DNA from: an uncultured Bacilli bacterium
GTDB taxonomy: Bacteria; Bacillota_I; Bacilli_A; RF39; UBA660
Length of the DNA: 64,000 bases
Reading direction: 5' to 3'
Assembly (NCBI GenBank): GCA_910580185.1
Contig: CAJTWC010000003.1
Location: 103,093-167,092 of the forward strand
Numbering within the stretch: position 1 is the first letter of the stretch; the number at the start of each line of letters is the position of its first letter. Below the pieces are notes generated by a model that did not search any database, had not been told where the DNA came from, and saw only the letters and a list, made by a program, of their open reading frames with translations. Position numbers and translations under genes: made by a program. This document shows, piece after piece, positions 9,128-64,000 of the stretch.

Positions 9128-9798
9128 TATTTTAATATTCTTTTGACGTTTTTGTTTTTTAATCTTAATTTTATTTTTTTAATAAATTTAGATTTTGGTA
9201 TTTTATCTATTACTCGCTCGTTTGTTTTTATTAAATTAGTTAATAATTCATTAAATAACTCATTTTTATTATTTAAAAGAATTGGACCATACTCTAATTC
9301 TGTTTTATTATATTTTTTACTTCCTTTTTTAAATTTTATAACCGTGTAAATAATATTTCTTTCTTTTATTAGTTTTTCATCAAAGATAAAGTAACCAACA
9401 CTAGTTAAGTACTTTCTTATTTTATCTACTCCTACGTTAGACTGAATTATTATTGTATCTACGTTTTTTAACTTGTCTTTATCTTTTTCTAATATGTTTA
9501 TTATCTTGGTATCACCTAAGCCTGACATAACAATTAAATTTATATTATCTTCTTTTTTTATGTCACTTAGGCCATCGGCTAGTCTAAGATCAATGTTTTT
9601 TACATTATTTAACATGACGTTTTTCATAGCTTGATTTAAAGCTCCCTCAGTTATATCACACGCTACCGCTTTTTTTATTTTTTTACTTTGAAGTAAATAT
9701 ATATCTAAAAGCGCATGATCACATCCTATATCAGCTAATATAGAATCATCATCTACCATATCGGCTATACACTTTAATCTTTTTGATAAATTAATCAC
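9127..9798 (-). CDS. trmK: tRNA (adenine22-N1)-methyltransferase TrmK (YqfN family)
   Basis: N-terminal [19 protein letters not shown]-binding fold typical of TrmK; lies downstream of sigA as in Bacillus. Confidence 0.7.
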
Positions 9799-10879
9799 TT
9801 AAATAATCCTTTAACTTTCTAGATCTAGATGGATGTCTTAATTTTCTAAGTGCTTTAGCTTCTATTTGTCTTATACGTTCACGTGTTACACCAAACATGT
9901 TACCAACTTCTTCTAATGTATGACAAGTACCACCATGAAGACCAAATCTTAATTTTAAAACTTCTTCTTCTCTTGGAGTTAAAGTACATAACACTTCTTC
10001 TATTTCATCTTTCAATACTTCGTTTATTGCATATTCTTCAGGTGACATTGAACTTTCATCTTTTAGAAAATCTCCTAAGTGAGAATCATCTTCTTCACCA
10101 ATTGGTGTTTCTAAAGATAGCGGATCTTGTGATATTTTAAATATTTCTCTTACCTTTTCCTCTGTTGTTCCCATCTTCTTAGCAAGTTCTGTTTCGGTTG
10201 GCTCTCTATTTAATTCTAGTGTCATTTGTCTTTGAATTCTCTTTAATTTATTAATTGTTTCAACCATGTGAACTGGAACACGAATTGTTTTAGCTTGGTC
10301 TGCAATAGCACGTGTTATAGCTTGTCTTATCCACCAAGTTGCATAAGTCGAAAATTTATAACCTTTAGATGCATCAAATTTATCTACTGCCTTCATTAAA
10401 CCAATGTTTCCTTCTTGAATTAAATCTAGGAAAGATAGATTCCTTCCAACGTATCTTTTAGCAATTGAAACAACAAGTCTTAAGTTAGATTCAGCAAGAA
10501 TTCTTTTAGCTTCCTCATCACCTTCTTCTACCCTTTTTGATAAAGCAAGTTCTTCTTCCAAGCTAAGTAAGCTTATCTTACCAATTTCCTTTAAATACAT
10601 CCTAACAGGATCATTTATACTTGCGTTTTTAGGTAGAGCAATATCCTCTATTGCAAGAGCATCTCCTTCATCAGATGAGTCATCTTCGTCTTCGAAATTT
10701 TCTGATATTATTTCAATGTTATTATCGTGAAATGCATTATATAATTCATCTAATGAATCAGCATCCATCTCTAATCCTTTTAAGCTTTCAGCTAGCTCTT
10801 CATAAGTTAAAGTCCCTTTTTCTTTACCTTTTTTTAATAATTCTTCTTTTCTTTGTTCAAATGTTTTTATTTCTTTCAT
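9791..10879 (-). CDS. sigA: RNA polymerase primary sigma factor (sigma-70 / SigA)
   Basis: Region 2 [18 protein letters not shown]...[15 protein letters not shown], region 3 [14 protein letters not shown], region 4 HTH; acidic N-terminus; adjacent to dnaG. Confidence 0.9.
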
Positions 10880-12618
10880 TACTTACACTCCCTTTTTTTT
10901 AAGTTACTTAATTTTTCTAATAAAACCACTTTTTTTGCAACGTTAGTTTCCGTTCTTATTTGTTCTTTTATTTTATTTATTTCATCTTTTATTATTCCAT
11001 CATCTATCGTTTTAATAAAATCCTCTATAACACCAGGTGAGACATCATCTGGTAATTTTAAATCATCTATTCTTAAAACTTCGTTAATTAACTCTTTTTT
11101 GTCCTCTAAATAAATAGTGAAATCCGTTAAATTAATATACCCATTTTTTTCATAAAATTCAAGTGTTTCCATAGCAATTCTCGACAATTTTTTATTTTTT
11201 AAATAAGAAACCTTATTTCTATATAATTCTATGGCAGTTTTATTTCTTAACATATAGTATATAAGATATTCTTCTGCTTTGTCATATTTATTTTTGCTAA
11301 TAGTTATTCTTTTATTTATTATTTTTTTCTCTTTTTTAGGTACTTTAGATACCATATCATTTATCGTATCAACATCAACACCTGTTTCTTTTGATATTTT
11401 CTTCAAGGTTAATTCATACACAACCTTATCATCAATCTTTTCTAGTTCCTTGGTGATACTTTTAATATAATTAGATACCTCGTTAAAATCATTAAAGTTT
11501 GTATTAGTTTTATTAACATCTAACCTAAATGATACAACGCTCATCAAATTATTTAAATGGTTGTTATATAAATCTATTCCTTTTTTTATTATGTAATCAT
11601 CAGGGTCTAGATTATCTTCAAGCCTTATTATTTTAGGTTCTATACCTATTTTTTCTAATGCCTCTATAGCACTTATGGTAGCTTTTTCACCTGCTTTATC
11701 CCCATCAAAACATAACACAACGTTTTTAGATAATTTTCTTATTAAATCTGCGTGCTCTTTTGTTATCGCAGTACCCATAGAAGCAACAACGTTTTTTATT
11801 CCAACGGTATATAATCTAATAACGTCCATAAATCCTTCAACGATTATTATCTGATGTTTTTCCCTTGCGTATTTCATCGCTTTATGATAATTATAAAGTA
11901 ACATTCCTTTTTTAAAGATTAAAGACTCTTTGGAGTTAACATACTTACTATCATCTTCCTCATTATATATTCTTCCAGAAAAACCAACTACTCTACCATC
12001 TAAATCATATAGTGGAAACATTATTCTGTTCCTAAAAATATCATAAGTAAAGTTTTTATTCTTGCCACATAAACCTATATCAACTAATTCATTTATATCA
12101 TAACCTTTATTAACAAGCAACTTACTTACGTTGTTATCGTTCATCGATAATCCAATTTCAAATTCTTTTATGGTTTCATCATCTAATTTTCTATCATTTA
12201 AATATTTTAACGCTTTCTTACCATATGAACTTCTAATGTTATTTTGATAATACTTATTAGTTATGTCAAACATTTTATAATATTTAATGTTTTTATCTTC
12301 TACTTTAGGTTTATCATCTACCTTTACATCAAGCATAACACCTGCTTTTTGTGCTACCTTGCTAACCGCCTCTTTAAAACTGATTTTTTCATAATTCATA
12401 ACAAAGTTAAATACGTTTCCAGATTCACCACAAACAAAGCAAGTATAGATTTGTTTTTCAGGAGAAATACTCATAGAAGGATTATGATCATCATGAAAAG
12501 GACATATAGCAAAATAATTCTTACCCTTTCTCTCAATAGGAAGGTATTCTGCAATAATATCTACAATATTTACTTTACGTTGTATATCTAAAATTATATC
12601 ATAAGGTATTTTCTCCAT
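10879..12618 (-). CDS. dnaG: DNA primase
   Basis: CHC2 zinc finger [13 protein letters not shown]...CFVCG; TOPRIM EGFMDVI...DGD; classic dnaG-sigA arrangement. Confidence 0.9.
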
Positions 12619-53923: not shown

Positions 53924-55252
53924 TCAATTAATTTCATTAATTATTTTGTTAGCAACTTCGAAGTCAGAAAAATGATTTTTTGTATCTCCTATTATTTGGT
54001 AGTTTTCATGACCTTTTCCCAAAATCATAAGTATCATATTATCTTTTAACAATTCAAGACCTTTTTTTATTGCATCATACCTATCATATATCACTTCATA
54101 TTTTCCTTTTGCACCTTTTAGAATATCTTTCATTATTTTTCTTTCATCCTCACTTCTAGGGTTATCATTAGTAAATATAACATAATTAGAATATTTACAA
54201 GAAATAGAAGCCATAATTGGTCTTTTTTCTCTATCTCTATTACCACCACAACCTATGATTGTTATAATCCCTTTATTCTTAATCTTATTAACCGTTTTTA
54301 ACACCTTTAAAACCGCATCCGGTGTATGAGCATAATCAATAAATATAACGTTAGAATTGTATTTTATTTTTTGCATTCTACCAGGTGGCTCAGATAATAT
54401 ATAAAATTTATCCTTTATTTTACTTAAATCATATCCTAATTTATTTATTATGTAATATGCATATAAAAAATTGTATACGTTAAAATAACCAACCATTGAT
54501 AAAATTAACCCATGTTTTATTTTATCTTTTATAACAATACTTGTTTTATCCAAATAGTTTTTTACCGAAGTTATTTTTACATCTTTACCAATAATATAAT
54601 TGTTATTTCGTCTATTTTTAAACCTTTTATAGTATTTATCTTTTTTATTTAATATACATATTTTTTTGTTCTTTAACATATTTATAATTTTCTTTTTACT
54701 TTTTATATAATCTTTCATGTTTTTATGATAATCTAAATGATCTTGTGTTATGTTAGTAACACCAACCGCATCAAAAAGTAATCCATATAATCTTTCTTGC
54801 TTTAGTGCATGAGAAGATGCTTCCATAACTATTACATCACAGCCTTTTTCTTTAGCATCTAAAATCAAATTATATAGTATATCAATACTTGGTGTAGTAT
54901 TATCTAATTCTTTAACTAAACCATCTATATAAAAACCAATGGTTCCAATATAAGCAGTTTTAACACCAATATAGTTTAACATTTGATATATAAGATAACA
55001 AGTAGTTGTTTTTCCGTTAGTGCCCGTTATTCCTATTAATTTCATATCATTTATTTTATCATTATAAAAATCCTTTATGTAATCATTAATACTTTCTACT
55101 TTAATGGTTTTTATATCATATGTTTCATCAAGCTCCGTAATTATCTTTACCGCACCATTTTCTATTGCACTTGTTATATATTTTTCATTATCTTTACAGA
55201 CTAAAAAGTAATCACCATCTTTTACATATTTAGAATTTTTCCATAAACGCAT
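53924..55252 (-). CDS. murE: Mur ligase, most likely UDP-N-acetylmuramoyl-L-alanyl-D-glutamate-2,6-diaminopimelate/L-lysine ligase
   Basis: ITGTNGKTTT P-loop, DNTTP, DYAHTPDA, GCGGNRDREKRP, TNDNPRSEDE (MurE-type signatures); somewhat short at 442 aa. Confidence 0.65.
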   Translation of the reverse strand: MRLWKNSKYVKDGDYFLVCKDNEKYITSAIENGAVKIITELDETYDIKTIKVESINDYIKDFYNDKINDMKLIGITGTNGKTTTCYLIYQMLNYIGVKTAYIGTIGFYIDGLVKELDNTTPSIDILYNLILDAKEKGCDVIVMEASSHALKQERLYGLLFDAVGVTNITQDHLDYHKNMKDYIKSKKKIINMLKNKKICILNKKDKYYKRFKNRRNNNYIIGKDVKITSVKNYLDKTSIVIKDKIKHGLILSMVGYFNVYNFLYAYYIINKLGYDLSKIKDKFYILSEPPGRMQKIKYNSNVIFIDYAHTPDAVLKVLKTVNKIKNKGIITIIGCGGNRDREKRPIMASISCKYSNYVIFTNDNPRSEDERKIMKDILKGAKGKYEVIYDRYDAIKKGLELLKDNMILMILGKGHENYQIIGDTKNHFSDFEVANKIINEIN

Positions 55253-55297
55253 TTTATCACCTTCTATATTTGTTTATGAAATTATGTAAAAATGGGT

Positions 55298-55330
55298 ACA
55301 AAAAAAGAATAAACTATTATATTTATTCTT
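55298..55330. terminator. bidirectional terminator between murE start region and the retron RT 3' end
   Basis: AAGAATAAA-N9-TTATTCTT hairpin followed by T runs. Confidence 0.45.
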
Positions 55331-55337
55331 AAAAAAT

Positions 55338-56294
55338 TTATTTTAATTTATTTTGAATACTATTTTTAACTTTTTCCTTATAATTTATAAATTCCATGCT
55401 ATTTTTTTCTATTTGCAAAACAAAATTTATTCTACCAAGTAATTTTCTTAAATATAAATCTTTATCTTTTATTCCGATTCTATTTAAATGACTATCTATA
55501 CCATATTTTTTTATGTAGTATATTTCTTGTCTTATTTTCCTTTTATAACTTTTTCTTATATTTAGTTTTTCATTTACGACAATACCAGTTACTTGCTGCC
55601 TTGTTTTGTTACTTACTACTTTTATTTTTTCTTTATTTAACCTAAATCCTTCATTAAATAAACATTCATTAACATGTCTTATAATTTCTTTTACATTAAA
55701 ATCACCAGAAAACGTCATGTCATCAGAATACCTGGTATAAGAGATATTTCTTTTGCTGCAATAACGTCCAACATGTTCATCAAAATCTCTTAAAACCAAA
55801 TTAGATATGTACCCGCTGGTAGGAGCTCCCTGTGGTAACTTATTATTATAAACACATAAATTTGTAAGTAACATCCCTAGTTTTTTGGGATATAATGATT
55901 CATTAAAGCATGCGTTATAAACTTTATTAAACGTAATATTATCAAAGAAGTTTTTAATATCTAATTTTAATATTGTTTTTTGGTTTATATGCGGTATTGC
56001 ATTATTAGCCAAAGAAGTTTTCTTTTTATAAGCAGTAGCATACTTTGATATTATTCTTTCTTCTAATACGTTAGTTAAAATATTTTTTTGTATTTGTTTT
56101 AATGCTTTAGAAGATTCATTTAAAAATCTTAAACCACCTTTTTTCTTATGAATAATTATTTCTTCATAGTTAGAATCTATATTATTACTGATACCATATA
56201 AAATCTTATTAACTTTTTTGATATCAGATGAATTAACCAAATTAAAAGATAATAATAGTTCGTTATATTTATCAATCGTTAAATACTTAAACAT
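55338..56294 (-). CDS. retron-type reverse transcriptase
   Basis: RT motifs LDIKNFFDNI (1/2), LPQGAPTSG (4), YTRYSDDMTF (5, YxDD); retron hallmarks NAIPH (NAxxH) and RQQVTGIV (VTG); 318 aa; GGAGA RBS; flanked upstream by an msr-msd-like ncRNA. Confidence 0.8.
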   Translation of the reverse strand: MFKYLTIDKYNELLLSFNLVNSSDIKKVNKILYGISNNIDSNYEEIIIHKKKGGLRFLNESSKALKQIQKNILTNVLEERIISKYATAYKKKTSLANNAIPHINQKTILKLDIKNFFDNITFNKVYNACFNESLYPKKLGMLLTNLCVYNNKLPQGAPTSGYISNLVLRDFDEHVGRYCSKRNISYTRYSDDMTFSGDFNVKEIIRHVNECLFNEGFRLNKEKIKVVSNKTRQQVTGIVVNEKLNIRKSYKRKIRQEIYYIKKYGIDSHLNRIGIKDKDLYLRKLLGRINFVLQIEKNSMEFINYKEKVKNSIQNKLK

Positions 56295-56304
56295 ATTATC
56301 ATCT

Positions 56305-56495
56305 CCTTGTTGTAAGCAAAATACTATAATATACTTTAATTAGCGAAGTGTACTTTTAACTACATGAAATGTAGAATAGTACACTGAGCATTACAAGTAT
56401 AATATTTATATTTAGTTTTTCTTGTTTTAGCGACTCGCTAAAGAGACTTTTATATAAATAAAAATCAAACGCTATTTTGTGCTTACATGGTTATT
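56305..56495 (-). ncRNA. retron msr-msd non-coding RNA with a1/a2 inverted repeats
   Basis: Inverted repeats TGTAAGCAAAATACT (56311..56325) and TATTTTGTGCTTACA (56474..56489) bracket a roughly 150-nt region. It contains an msr-type hairpin TTTAGCGA-CT-CGCTAAA and a long msd-type hairpin GTGTACT..CTACAT-GAA-ATGTAG..AGTACAC. A conserved G follows a2 (AUAGCG). Sits immediately 5' of the RT start. Confidence 0.65.
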
Positions 56496-56691
56496 ATATA
56501 TTAAAATTATATTTTTTTAAACTAGTATTTCATTATTTCACATATGTTTTAAGTTTTGAAAATTTAAAAAAACACGCAAATCACTTGAATAAATGACTTC
56601 GTGTTTTTATAATACGTGTATTTTTTACTTTGAAACTAAAATATAACAGTTAATACTCAATCTTGCTTGATAACAAGTTATTAACACTTTA

Positions 56692-57207
56692 TTATGAATG
56701 TATCAACTCTTTATTATATTCTATACATTTTTCTTCTAATAATTTAAAGTTACAACATCTGTTAGATATTACCCTGTTTAGTTTTTTCGAAATATATAAA
56801 TCATATAATTTTTTACTTTTCTTTCTAACTTGTAAATTATGTTCATTAAGCCATGATAACTGATCTAGTAACAAATTATAATATTTAACATCGTCTAGTT
56901 TATTAGAATCATCCATATCAATCAGATAGTAATTATTATCTGATACCGGAATCATATTATTAAAGTTTAATGCACCAAGCTTACCATCTTCTATTTTTAA
57001 AAAGTCCATCATATTACGCATCACTTTATGTTTTTCTTTTGGACTTAATAATGGAGTGAAATATTTAATTTTATCTATTTCAAATAAAACACCAATGAAT
57101 GGTCTATTTTCTTTTTTAGAAAAATTATAAGGAACTCTTTTATCAAACTTTCTTAAATAGTCACAATATTTACTATCAACAATAACTAATTTCATTTTTT
57201 TATTCAT
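56692..57207 (-). CDS. ToxN/AbiQ-family type III toxin-like endoribonuclease
   Basis: 171 aa. KLVIVDSKYCDYLRKFDKRVP...FIGVLFEIDKIKYFTPLLSPKEKH...CCNFKLLEEK parallels ToxN/AbiQ (KYIEYLKEFDDKVP...FIGIVLEI..KYLAPLTSPKKWH...CNFSLLEEK). GGGGTGA RBS; own terminator downstream at about 56565..56610. Confidence 0.7.
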   Translation of the reverse strand: MNKKMKLVIVDSKYCDYLRKFDKRVPYNFSKKENRPFIGVLFEIDKIKYFTPLLSPKEKHKVMRNMMDFLKIEDGKLGALNFNNMIPVSDNNYYLIDMDDSNKLDDVKYYNLLLDQLSWLNEHNLQVRKKSKKLYDLYISKKLNRVISNRCCNFKLLEEKCIEYNKELIHS

Positions 57208-57261
57208 ATTATCACCCCTTTCTTCTTTGAATACAAATGTTCGTTATATATAGTAAAATAA

Positions 57262-57442
57262 AAAGCTAGCGTAAAATTAATTACTGCTAGCTAACTTTTT
57301 TAATTCCCAATTTAATGGCTGGGTTCACCGCTTTTTTCTGCTACCAAATAGTAGCATTAATATTATATGCAAATAAATTGCATAACATAATTTCTTATGT
57401 ACCTAAATATTACTATATATAAATTCATAAGTCAATGAATTT
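57262..57442 (-). promoter_or_regulatory. promoter (TTGACT-N17-TAATAT, 57414..57442) plus structured 5' leader of four short hairpins and a terminator-like hairpin (57272..57298) upstream of the ToxN-like gene
   Basis: Consecutive non-identical palindromes ACATAA/TTATGT, ATGCAA/TTGCAT, GCTAC/GTAGC, CCCA/TGGG, then GCTAGC-N15-GCTAGC plus T run; no tandem direct repeats found. Confidence 0.35.
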
Positions 57443-57499
57443 TAATAATTTTATATAAACAGAAATTTCTAACACAAAAAAGGAAAATAGTTTAAACTA

Positions 57500-59047
57500 C
57501 TATCTTCCTTCTATTTCTTTTAATTTCTTTTCTTTATCAATTCTTGCAAATAATACCTCTGGTTTCATATCACTATAAGTATTATTTTCGTTAAAGCAGT
57601 CTGTTTCATCTTTGATATTCAACTGTTTAAATATTTCATCAGAAGTCTTAGTTAAGAATGGTCTTAAGAAATATGCACACACTCTAATAGATTCTAATAA
57701 GTTATATAAAACAGTTTCTAACCTATCTTGTTTATTTTCTTCTTTAGCTAAGCTCCAAGGCATAGTTTCATCTATGTATTTATTACTACGTCTTAATAGG
57801 TCAAATATTTCATCAAGTGCAAAGCCAATTTCTAACCTTTCCATTCTTTTTTCTACTTTTGAATCTAAGTTATTAATCATAGAAATAAGTTCGTTATCCA
57901 CTTCTTCAGTTACTTTCTTATTAATAACTGTACCATTAAAGTATTTATTAGCCATCGATATTGTTCTATTAACTAAGTTACCTAATGTGTTAGCTAAATC
58001 AGTGTTTGTTCTTTCAATCAATAATTCATAAGTTAAATTACCATCGTTTGCAAAAGGTATTTCATGTAAAACATAATATCTTACCGCGTCTACTCCAAAT
58101 AAATCCACTAAGTCATCTGCGTATATGGTGTTTCCTTTACTCTTACTCATCTTATCAGAGTTAGTTAAAAGCCAAGGATGACCAAATACTTGTTTTGGCA
58201 GTTCAAGATCTAAACTCCATAAAAAACATGGCCAATATATGGTATGAAATCTTATAATATCTTTACCAATTAAATGAAGGTCAGCTGGCCACCATTTATC
58301 AAATTCTTCAGAAGATCCTTCTGGATCATAACCAATGTTTGTTATATAGTTAGTTAAAGCATCAAGCCACACGTATACAACGTGTTTTGGATCAATGTCT
58401 ACCGTTATTCCCCAATCAAACGAAGTTCTAGACACGCATAAATCTTGTAATCCCGGTTTAATAAAGTTATTTAACATTTCATTCTTTCTTGATTCAGGTT
58501 GTATAAATTCTGGATGAGATTCAATGTATTCTACTAATTTATCTTGATATTTAGATAATTTAAAGAAGTAAGCTTCTTCTTTTTTTTCTTCTACGTTCCT
58601 TCCGCAATCAGGACATTTACCATCTACAAGCTGCGATTCAGTCCAAAAAGATTCACAAGGAGTACAATAAAGTCCAGAATATTCACCTTTATAAATATCG
58701 CCTTTTTCATACATCTTATTAAATATTTTTTGAACTATTCGTTCATGCTTTGGATCAGTTGTCCTAACGAATTTATCATAAGATGTATTCATAACATCCC
58801 ATATTCTTTTTATTTCTGTAGCTACTTCATCTACAAATGCTTGTGGTGTAACACCTTTATCTTTTGCCTTAAGTTCTATTTTTTCTCCATGCTCATCAGT
58901 TCCGGTTTGAAAATATACATCATAACCTTTACTTCTTTTGTACCTTGCAATAGCATCTGCAAGTACTATCTCATAAGTATTTCCTATATGAGGTTTACCT
59001 GAAGTATAAGCTATTGCAGTTGAAATATAATATTTTTTATTATTCAT
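57500..59047 (-). CDS. metG: methionyl-tRNA synthetase (short form without C-terminal tRNA-binding domain)
   Basis: HIGH-type motif AYTSGKPHIGNTYE, zinc knuckle CPDCG, KMSKS motif KMSKSKGN; 515 aa. Confidence 0.95.
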   Translation of the reverse strand: MNNKKYYISTAIAYTSGKPHIGNTYEIVLADAIARYKRSKGYDVYFQTGTDEHGEKIELKAKDKGVTPQAFVDEVATEIKRIWDVMNTSYDKFVRTTDPKHERIVQKIFNKMYEKGDIYKGEYSGLYCTPCESFWTESQLVDGKCPDCGRNVEEKKEEAYFFKLSKYQDKLVEYIESHPEFIQPESRKNEMLNNFIKPGLQDLCVSRTSFDWGITVDIDPKHVVYVWLDALTNYITNIGYDPEGSSEEFDKWWPADLHLIGKDIIRFHTIYWPCFLWSLDLELPKQVFGHPWLLTNSDKMSKSKGNTIYADDLVDLFGVDAVRYYVLHEIPFANDGNLTYELLIERTNTDLANTLGNLVNRTISMANKYFNGTVINKKVTEEVDNELISMINNLDSKVEKRMERLEIGFALDEIFDLLRRSNKYIDETMPWSLAKEENKQDRLETVLYNLLESIRVCAYFLRPFLTKTSDEIFKQLNIKDETDCFNENNTYSDMKPEVLFARIDKEKKLKEIEGR

Positions 59048-62381: not shown

Positions 62382-64000
62382 TTACATATTATCTTTCTTA
62401 TAAGTCAATTCTTCTTTTTTCTCATCTGTTATTCCAAACGCTTCATTTATTAAAGTATTCATAACTTCTTTTAATTCATGGGTGCCATTTTTAAAAACTT
62501 CTTCTATTTTATTTTTATCTATACCCGTAAAACTAGATATTTCAGAAATACTTTTATCTGGATAATTCATTTTTAAAAATAAAAGTTTATAATCCCTAGG
62601 ATCAATTTTTTTCATTACTTCTAAAAAATATGGCATATTAAATAATTCATATAATTTTAAATATTCTAAATTTTCGTCTATGTTTGGTTTGGCTTCTTGG
62701 GCGTTAACATTATTGATGCCAGTATCAGGTGTAGTTGCCTTAGAATTTTCTTTGTCAATAGGTATATCAACTGGCGTATCTAATTTTTTTGCCTTACTTT
62801 CATCAATATTTTCTTCTATCTTAGTTTTTGGAACTTGTTTTTTTCTTCCTCTTTTCCTTGGTGGAGATACAAGAAAATTTTTTATATTTCTTATAGCAAG
62901 CGAATAAGTTTGGTTTTCTCTTTCTGTAAAACCACCACGAACTTTTTCTCCCTTTTCTAAATCATTGTTCCATTTTCTTAACACCATTTCTTTTTGTGAT
63001 GCGCACAAAACATTATTTATTATTTCATCTACTCTTTCTTTTGGTGCATCAAACATAGCATAAAAAGCTTTTTCTTCTGTATTTTCCATTTTTTCTTCCT
63101 CCTTAATTTCTGCTTTTCTTAAATTTTCTTTAAATTTATTGCTATAACTACTACCTCTCCTTTCATTTATATCACTAACCTTTTTATTAGATTTTGGAAT
63201 TGTATGAGTACCTGTACTAATGAAACTTGATTCTTTAATTATGGCTGGTTTTGTTTCATCTTTTGCTTTTTCTTTATTCTTTTTATATTCGTTATATTGC
63301 TCTACTATTTTTTTACAAGTTTTATCTTCCTCTTTTAAAATAAGTCCCATATTATCAGCAAACCAAGAACCCATCGACGTATTATCTTCAAACTTAGGTT
63401 TTATCCTACTAGGATCAAATTTATTAAAATCTGCGCAAGCTGCAAAACTTAATAATTTTTCTTCATCTATCATTGGATTTTCACTAGATTCATATTTTCT
63501 TTGTTCTTTTATATATGCATTTCTTAATTTTCTTAACGCCTTACATTCAATTTGTCTTATTCTTTCTCTAGTGACATTATATATACTGCCTACTTCTTCT
63601 AATGTACGAGGAATACCATCCTTAATACCAAATCTTAAAAACAAAATATCTTTTTCTCTAGTAGTAATAGAAGTCTTTTTTATTATATTTTCTATAACAT
63701 CAATGGATAAATTTTCAAATACAGTCTCTTCAAGATTACTATTTTCATCAGCGACAAAGCTAAGTAATTCTGTATCTTCATCATCCCCAACGAACGTATT
63801 AAGGCTCGTAGTATTAGCATTCATATTTAAAATTAAAATTTCTTCTAACTTTTCAAGTGGCATTTCTATTTCATTAGCTAACTCTAAATTAGTAGGCTCT
63901 CTCCCTAATCTTTTATATAATATATTTTTAGCTTTCTTAATATCATTTAACTTTCCTTGCATATGAACAGGTATTCTAATAGTACCTTTAAAATCTTCAA
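62382..64000 (-). CDS. sigma-70-family (RpoD-like) paralog with a roughly 350-aa C-terminal extension; 5' end beyond the window
   Basis: In-window part begins in region 3 (TIRIPVHM, cf. sigA TIRVPVHM) and contains region 4 [41 protein letters not shown]. It then continues in frame for roughly 350 aa of K/E-rich sequence ending with a second region-4-like HTH (LLFLKMNYPDKSISEISSFTGIDKNKI). Confidence 0.65.
   Translation of the reverse strand, partial: EDFKGTIRIPVHMQGKLNDIKKAKNILYKRLGREPTNLELANEIEMPLEKLEEILILNMNANTTSLNTFVGDDEDTELLSFVADENSNLEETVFENLSIDVIENIIKKTSITTREKDILFLRFGIKDGIPRTLEEVGSIYNVTRERIRQIECKALRKLRNAYIKEQRKYESSENPMIDEEKLLSFAACADFNKFDPSRIKPKFEDNTSMGSWFADNMGLILKEEDKTCKKIVEQYNEYKKNKEKAKDETKPAIIKESSFISTGTHTIPKSNKKVSDINERRGSSYSNKFKENLRKAEIKEEEKMENTEEKAFYAMFDAPKERVDEIINNVLCASQKEMVLRKWNNDLEKGEKVRGGFTERENQTYSLAIRNIKNFLVSPPRKRGRKKQVPKTKIEENIDESKAKKLDTPVDIPIDKENSKATTPDTGINNVNAQEAKPNIDENLEYLKLYELFNMPYFLEVMKKIDPRDYKLLFLKMNYPDKSISEISSFTGIDKNKIEEVFKNGTHELKEVMNTLINEAFGITDEKKEELTYKKDNM

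Follow-up and report, generated by a model that had tools for sequence, protein, structure and literature searches.

A probable msr-msd gene of a stand-alone, Ec107-type retron in an uncultured gut Bacilli genome

The reverse transcriptase gene and the element upstream of it

The window, by which we mean the whole stretch of 64,000 nt of DNA that was analysed, carries on its minus strand a retron reverse transcriptase (RT) gene (55338..56294) encoding a protein of 318 aa with the motifs NNAIPH (region X), YSDD (catalytic) and QVTGIVV (region Y). The protein matched Pfam RVT_1 (2.6e-23), and Pfam identified no extra, fused domain along its 318 aa. Its top PADLOC matches were all retron RT models, RT_Ec107-like being the best (5.4e-124, 411 bits) and RT_III-A the next (344 bits, 1.9e-103), and the nearest solved structure was that of the Ec86 RT (2e-36), with which the NAxxH, YxDD and VTG motifs could be aligned. 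The score against NCBIfam retron_St85_RT was 216 bits, just below the cutoff of 235. The catalytic box is YSDD, versus the usual YADD; that of the Ec107 RT is YCDD (PMC6868368).

Directly upstream of the RT gene lies a structured element that an earlier note on this DNA had described as a retron ncRNA. Because the RT gene is on the minus strand, the ncRNA is to be read on the minus strand as well, co-directionally with the RT gene, and the strand of the earlier account is corrected accordingly; all features of the element given below are on this strand. In the 5′ to 3′ direction it comprises a TATAAT box, the repeat a2, a G, two msr hairpins, a three-part msd hairpin, the repeat a1, an AAGGAG and the ATG of the RT. 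The promoter-like site (56521..56493) consists of TTTAAA (56521..56516), a 17-nt spacer and TATAAT (56498..56493), with 10 out of 12 consensus matches. In the alignment of homologues, the TATAAT forms a conserved block a few nucleotides upstream of a2, and the site would set the transcript start around the 5′ end of a2.

The 5′ inverted repeat a2, TGTAAGCACAAAATA (56487..56473), pairs with the 3′ inverted repeat a1, TATTTTGCTTACA (56323..56311), in a stem of 13 bp with one bulged C; both repeats had been recognized before, with coordinates that were off by 1–2 nt. The G noted right after a2 is G56472, the candidate branching (priming) G, which stands in the context AAUA-G-CG, is invariant in 55 out of 55 aligned loci and is aligned to the G of GGCAAUA-G-CG in the E. 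coli retron Ec107; by analogy with retron biology, its 2′-OH could act as the primer. At the other end of the element, the G immediately 5′ of a1 and opposite the branching G (56324) is likewise invariant in 55 out of 55 loci and is found in Ec107 too (G before TATTGCC).

Two hairpins make up the msr. Between the branch G and the conserved hairpin, the minimum-free-energy fold contains the AU-rich msr hairpin 1, GAUUUUUAU-UUAU-AUAAAAGUC (56466..56445), which varies in sequence and length among relatives. The conserved msr hairpin 2, UUUAGCG-AGU-CGCUAAA (56442..56426), has a covarying stem and a GAGU run (56436..56433) that is invariant, with GAGT in 55 out of 55 loci, and it is likely the recognition element of the RT. 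The earlier note had proposed a single short msr-like hairpin, which is hairpin 2, and had overlooked the variable AU hairpin.

An A-rich linker separates the msr hairpins from the msd. The long imperfect msd-like hairpin that had been pointed out corresponds to a stem-loop at 56401..56330, which fold and covariation resolve into three covarying helices: a lower stem UAUACUU/AAGUAUA (56401..56395 / 56336..56330), a middle stem GUGUACU/AGUACAC (56384..56378 / 56354..56348) and an upper stem CUACAU-UUC-AUGUAG (56374..56369 / 56365..56360). The internal-loop sequences beside the middle stem (UCA.UG / A.UU.C) are also conserved. The predicted msd, the putative template for an msDNA of ~92 nt, spans 56416..56325 with bounds of plus or minus a few nt, and these boundaries and this length, like the branch point, are predictions from homology. 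The template was taken to start just 5′ of the G preceding a1, and its far boundary is approximate because it was set by alignment with Ec107 and by counting 107 nt back in the latter from the base before the a1-proximal G. The msd boundaries of Ec107 itself are our assumption, taken from its name (107 nt). The DNA complementary to the predicted msd (plus strand) folds as a hairpin (-13.9 kcal/mol, z = -4.7).

The RT is preceded by the ribosome-binding site (RBS) AAGGAG (56308..56303), 8 nt before its ATG (56294), and a GGAG-type motif occurs at the same position in nearly all the related loci. The repeat a1 ends 2 nt before this RBS and 16 nt before the ATG, and not about 15 nt before the RBS as had been stated. 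Just after the RT stop codon, an AT-only hairpin of 10 bp, AAGAAUAAA...UUUAUUCUU, is followed by a U run (55300..55330, minus strand; -7.0 kcal/mol, z = -2.9); it was missed by a consensus terminator scan because that scan requires G-C pairs. It may be a weak terminator before murE, or transcription of the RT may read through into murE-thyA-folA.

Conserved RNA structure and kinship with Ec107

RNA folding, a search for compensatory changes in homologous loci and a covariance model had been proposed as checks of the element, and all of them spoke in its favour. The 191-nt RNA folds at -45.5 kcal/mol versus -27.4 +/- 3.7 kcal/mol for shuffled sequences (z = -4.9), and none of 200 shuffles was as good. 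The opposite strand folds almost equally well (z = -4.0), as hairpins do, so that folding alone cannot assign the strand; U-G pairs are frequent in the stems (26 out of 55 at one pair), which fits the strand of the RT.

A genome scan with the RT yielded 80 loci, nearly all from uncultured gut 'Bacilli/Tenericutes/Mollicutes/Clostridia' metagenome-assembled genomes (MAGs), with RT identities from 81% down to 36%. The stretch upstream of the RT was alignable in 55 loci, and a structure-blind MAFFT alignment was made. RNAalifold applied to this raw alignment recovered only 12 pairs, owing to gappy columns; therefore, a structure of 41 pairs was derived from per-sequence folds and tested against slid and shuffled controls. 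On the MAFFT alignment of the 55 loci, 88.0% of 2175 cells could pair, versus 29–45% when the 3′ partners were slid by 1–3 columns, and compensatory changes on both sides were found in 35 of the 41 pairs. The compensatory cells amounted to 267, versus 58–88 in the slid controls and 80 +/- 8 in the shuffles, none of 500 shuffles reaching 267. On the alignment fitted to the model (63 sequences, including the window and Ec107), 90.8% of the cells paired and 41 of 42 pairs were compensatory.

The individual helices contributed as follows. The a2/a1 helix was 98.5% paired with all eight pairs compensatory on the model-fitted alignment (61 distinct sequences), and 83–99% paired on the structure-blind one. 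The helix of msr hairpin 1 was 74–78% paired (4/4 pairs compensatory), and the stem of msr hairpin 2 was 96–98% paired (7/8 pairs compensatory), with variants such as GCG/CGC, ACG/CGU and GUG/CAC. The three msd helices were 81–93% paired, and compensatory changes were found in 22/22 of their pairs on the model-fitted alignment and in 19/22 on the structure-blind one.

A covariance model (R1) was built from 54 loci with the window left out. Across the 64-kb window its sole significant site was 56479..56315 on the minus strand (86 bits, E 5.6e-12); the one further match was the same site on the opposite strand (19 bits, E 0.46). In 62 of the 80 loci, eight of which had been absent from model building, R1 identified a single site, immediately in front of the RT. 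An Rfam scan of 54000..58000 at E <= 10 returned nothing at the element, only a chance snoRNA match elsewhere, and Rfam identified no intron RNA domains.

For a comparison with an experimentally verified retron, Ec107 was located via two msd fragments from a published primer table (PMC8563936 supplement). The Ec107 retron was present in 366 of 5426 complete E. coli genomes, one copy of which (L081; NZ_CP033401.1 3634631..3635887), situated between pyrE and slmA, was compared with the window. The two RTs share 43% identity over 314 aa (E 8e-90), and the genuine Ec107 RT scores 437 and 313 bits on RT_Ec107-like and RT_III-A, respectively, the same order as for the window RT (411 and 344 bits). 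R1 aligns to the Ec107 msr-msd over model positions 1–158 of 158 (L081 2451..2627; 65 bits, E 1.4e-8), and this match holds despite GC contents of 55% versus 25%. The window and Ec107 RNAs have in common the AAUAGCG of the branch site, a GCGAGUCGC hairpin and the G-UAUUGC of a1, and they adopt the same fold. The end-to-end alignment, the shared motifs and the shared fold together argue that the window element is a homologue of an experimentally characterised msr-msd, and three features do not vary from gut Bacilli to E. coli: the branch G, the GAGU loop and the G preceding a1. Short CTTCG or CGCTTCG-like motifs also recur in the msd of the window (56345..56349), of many relatives and of Ec107 (L081 2535..2605). 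In L081, the Ec107 RT is annotated merely as 'reverse transcriptase family protein', and its ncRNA carries no annotation.

The canonical retron layout put forward in the earlier note is thus borne out by four independent lines of evidence, namely covariation, the held-out R1, homology to the Ec107 RNA and the retron-type RT. These justify its further statement that the RT call has support from the RNA, irrespective of protein motifs, for which covariation, the held-out R1 and the full-length homology to the Ec107 RNA all speak. Alternatively, the region could serve the RT mRNA as an ordinary 5′ leader or attenuator, or it could be an ncRNA from some other RT system (e.g., DRT2 or a group II intron fragment): it contains hairpins with U runs behind them, a scan of the plus strand flags the conserved hairpin as terminator-like, and the RT has weak similarity to Drt2 and group II intron RTs. 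However, the RT scored only 57.5 bits against the NCBIfam Drt2 model NF041746 (cutoff 390) and 54 bits against the group II RT model (cutoff 300), and its match to the solved Drt2 structure covered a stretch of 58 residues. The Rfam result on intron domains, the retron-specific NAxxH and VTG motifs of the RT, the end-to-end homology with the Ec107 msr-msd and the a1/a2 stem with an invariant G at its end, a retron signature, likewise speak against such an origin, which we consider extremely improbable.

Judged by the RT profile scores, the 43% RT identity and the ncRNA homology, the window locus is clade 2 Ec107-like. We consider it very probable that the locus is the minus-strand msr-msd gene of a retron of the Ec107 (Retron-Eco5) type that stands alone, without an effector; the earlier note had missed that the retron is of this Ec107-like, effector-less type.

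Genomic neighbourhood and the question of an effector

The window is core chromosome, with valS, alaS, proS, lon, recD2, dnaG and rpoD, and PADLOC models of retron effectors found no match in the 53 other ORFs of the window. When ORFs within ~6 kb of the RT were clustered, no family recurred in more than 10 of the 81 loci; where families did recur near the RT (MetRS, MurE, P-type ATPase), this is due to the shared gene order of close relatives. The 125 immediate neighbours included no Pfam or PADLOC family with more than six occurrences, and these neighbours are housekeeping genes, e.g., CTP synthase, GTPases, MurE and transporters. In nearly every case ~180–260 nt separate the RT from its upstream gene, which is the length of the ncRNA. 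The co-orientation of the retron with its flanking genes, considered as a sign of insertion into an operon, is uninformative because 50 of the 54 window genes lie on one strand.

The MurE-like gene downstream of the RT was considered as an effector and rejected: it is a true MurE (434 bits, equivalog cutoff 373) and adjoins the RT only in syntenic relatives. A PADLOC match to 'RT_UG29' (3e-56), which might have indicated a second RT, proved to be the DnaG primase (10879..12618, minus strand), covering the primase part only of the 2280-position model; matches of this kind are a likely source of false defence-system calls. A normal-length rpoD follows dnaG at 9791..10879. A further RpoD-like sigma factor gene (62382..64000, minus strand) runs off the window end, and in its product, regions 3 and 4 precede a C-terminal extension of ~380 aa for which Pfam gave no match.

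Directly upstream of the retron lies a type III toxin-antitoxin locus (56692..57440, minus strand) with an AbiQ/ToxN toxin gene (56692..57207), a promoter-like site of its own (57435..57407, minus strand) and a single antitoxin-like unit of 36 nt, AAAGCGGTGAACCCAGCCATTAAATTGGGAATTAAA (about 57334..57299, minus strand); a terminator hairpin precedes the toxin too. In the syntenic relative L006, three tandem copies of the 36-nt unit occur at the same place, which suggests that the window copy has been reduced to one repeat. The idea of an AbiQ without an antitoxin was rejected on these grounds. The AbiQ/ToxN endoribonuclease could in principle be the effector of the retron, a new retron–toxin pairing, as it is encoded directly upstream on the same strand and both are defence-type genes. 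Against this, AbiQ adjoins the RT in only 3 of the 81 loci, it has its own type III antitoxin unit and terminator, a terminator-like hairpin and the promoter-like site of the retron stand between the two, and AbiQ is missing from the relative L005, where the retron occupies the same site. We hold such a pairing to be very unlikely, and the stand-alone reading is preferred.

Several relatives retain the gene order metG ... retron–murE (window 53924..59047 versus L001, L002, L005, L006 and L057) at RT identities of 63–81%, and the slot between metG and the retron varies among them, being empty or occupied by AbiQ, by an SLT-domain gene or by fragments of both. In L057, the RT is shortened to 244 aa, which indicates that the element can decay. 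The cassette in the window might accordingly be regarded as a decaying or purely selfish remnant, a retron-derived RNA and RT now idle for the host, and the lack of an effector in cis, the shortened RT of L057 and the loss of the PRTase partner suggested for this branch (Mestre 2020, PMC7736814) would all agree with that. However, nearly all of the 81 loci encode an RT of full length whose motifs are intact, the pairing of the ncRNA has been kept through many compensatory changes, which needs selection, the retron–murE arrangement persists while RT identity falls to 63–81%, and the RT has more than 5000 metagenome homologues at E <= 1e-10. Taken with this evidence, an idle remnant appears improbable, and a maintained stand-alone retron is the reading adopted here. 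In phage and plasmid collections, no relative with more than 60% identity was found.

Recurrent accessory genes were absent at the Ec107-like loci, save for one subclade of five related loci. There, an ATPase of ~290 aa (AAA_15/AAA_21, PtuA/AriA-like, with no nuclease domain) is encoded directly upstream of the Ec107-like ncRNA (L028:4884-5792, L031:4884-5792, L034:18-884, L035:4938-5807 and L046:4923-5789). The genes further out differ in four ways, and the ATPase is absent from the window. Possibly, a PtuA-like ABC ATPase is a new acquisition of this subclade and serves it as an accessory module.

Proposed function and comparison with known systems

By homology to Ec107, msDNA would be synthesized at this locus, and a working scheme could be outlined. 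A sigma-70-type promoter (TATAAT, 56498..56493) would start the transcript around a2, and the latter would run through the msr, the msd and a1 into the RT ORF, because only 16 nt lie between a1 and the ATG. Pairing of a2 with a1, which is shown by covariation, would bring G56472 to the stem end, beside the 3′ terminus of the msd template. The RT would bind the msr, most likely at the hairpin with the GAGU loop (56442..56426), prime from the 2′-OH of G56472 and copy the msd from about 56325 to about 56416. If the locus behaves as Ec107 does, RNase H would then remove the RNA template, and the product would be a branched msDNA of ~92 nt with a long hairpin. Our best guess, which is the weakest step of the scheme and is offered with low confidence, is that the complex of RT and msDNA might serve phage defence or a stress response as a sensor or guard, its partner being unlinked or absent. 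The defence tests of the Millman preprint (10.1101/2020.06.21.156273) did not include Ec107, which makes a role in defence a guess; Ec107 expression rises on starvation (PMC6868368).

A more far-reaching reading is that the Ec107-like cassette works with its RT and msDNA only, needing no toxin effector in cis or in trans. The retention of the cassette beside murE in small-genome gut Bacilli at RT identities of ~63–81% is consistent with it, as is the invariance of three features (branch G, GAGU loop, G just 5′ of a1) from Bacilli to E. coli; nonetheless, we regard this reading as rather unlikely. If true, it would imply a role other than abortive infection, for example a stress- or starvation-linked function of the msDNA.

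The lineage itself is not new. An 'orphan' clade-2 Ec107-like lineage has been described by Mestre 2020 (PMC7736814) and in the SPIRE survey of 2026 (10.64898/2026.05.14.725207). In the latter preprint, clade2_Ec107like is 93% Bacillota and 91% host-associated, is without accessory modules and is the second most abundant retron group in SPIRE genomes, and the Ec107_like covariance model is the msr/msd model detected most often. The window retron is an ordinary addition to this already catalogued and surveyed group, and one more clean example of an effector-less retron lineage, whose function is the least understood. It provides a base-by-base anatomy with which the many copies in gut MAGs that lack annotation could be annotated. 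An annotation gap is apparent here, with the NCBI retron model falling just below its cutoff and Rfam being without a family for the RNA. Because the ncRNA is homologous between E. coli and low-GC gut Bacilli, a very abundant gut lineage can be modelled on Ec107, which has been studied experimentally.

Among the known systems, DRT2 (an RT and an ncRNA, with rolling-circle cDNA synthesis) resembles the window locus in having a single RT gene after a structured ncRNA and no other protein; it differs in that the RNA here resembles that of Ec107 and has inverted repeats at its ends as well as a branch G. Type III-A retrons (an RT and a PRTase-like protein, with or without a winged-helix protein) are closer: RT_III-A is the second-best PADLOC match, and the Ec107 branch is sister to the PRTase-linked RTs (Mestre 2020, PMC7736814). 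In these retrons a PRTase-like or winged-helix gene adjoins the RT, whereas neither the window nor its relatives have one beside the RT: PADLOC found no such gene in the window, and none was present among the 125 immediate neighbours of the relatives' RTs. Retron-Eco1 (Ec86; PDB 7v9u, 7xjg, 8qbk) follows the same ncRNA plan, a2-G(branch)-CG... and G-a1, but it has an NDT-type effector (type II-A3), and the similarity of its RT to the window RT is far below that of Ec107.

The closest counterpart is Ec107 (Retron-Eco5). The differences between the two lie in the host, a gammaproteobacterium there versus an uncultured gut Bacilli-type MAG of 28% GC here; in the catalytic box (YCDD versus YSDD); in the msDNA, which is 107 nt long and demonstrated for Ec107 and ~92 nt long and predicted by homology for the window; and in the a1/a2 stem, which is 16 bp in Ec107, 13 bp in the window and 7–9 bp in most relatives. 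The likenesses extend to RT length (319 aa in Ec107, 318 aa here), to the best PADLOC RT model, to the same order of the ncRNA elements and to the layout as a whole, both being compact cassettes of ~1.2 kb without an accessory gene, set between housekeeping genes (pyrE/slmA in E. coli; metG-abiQ/murE here).
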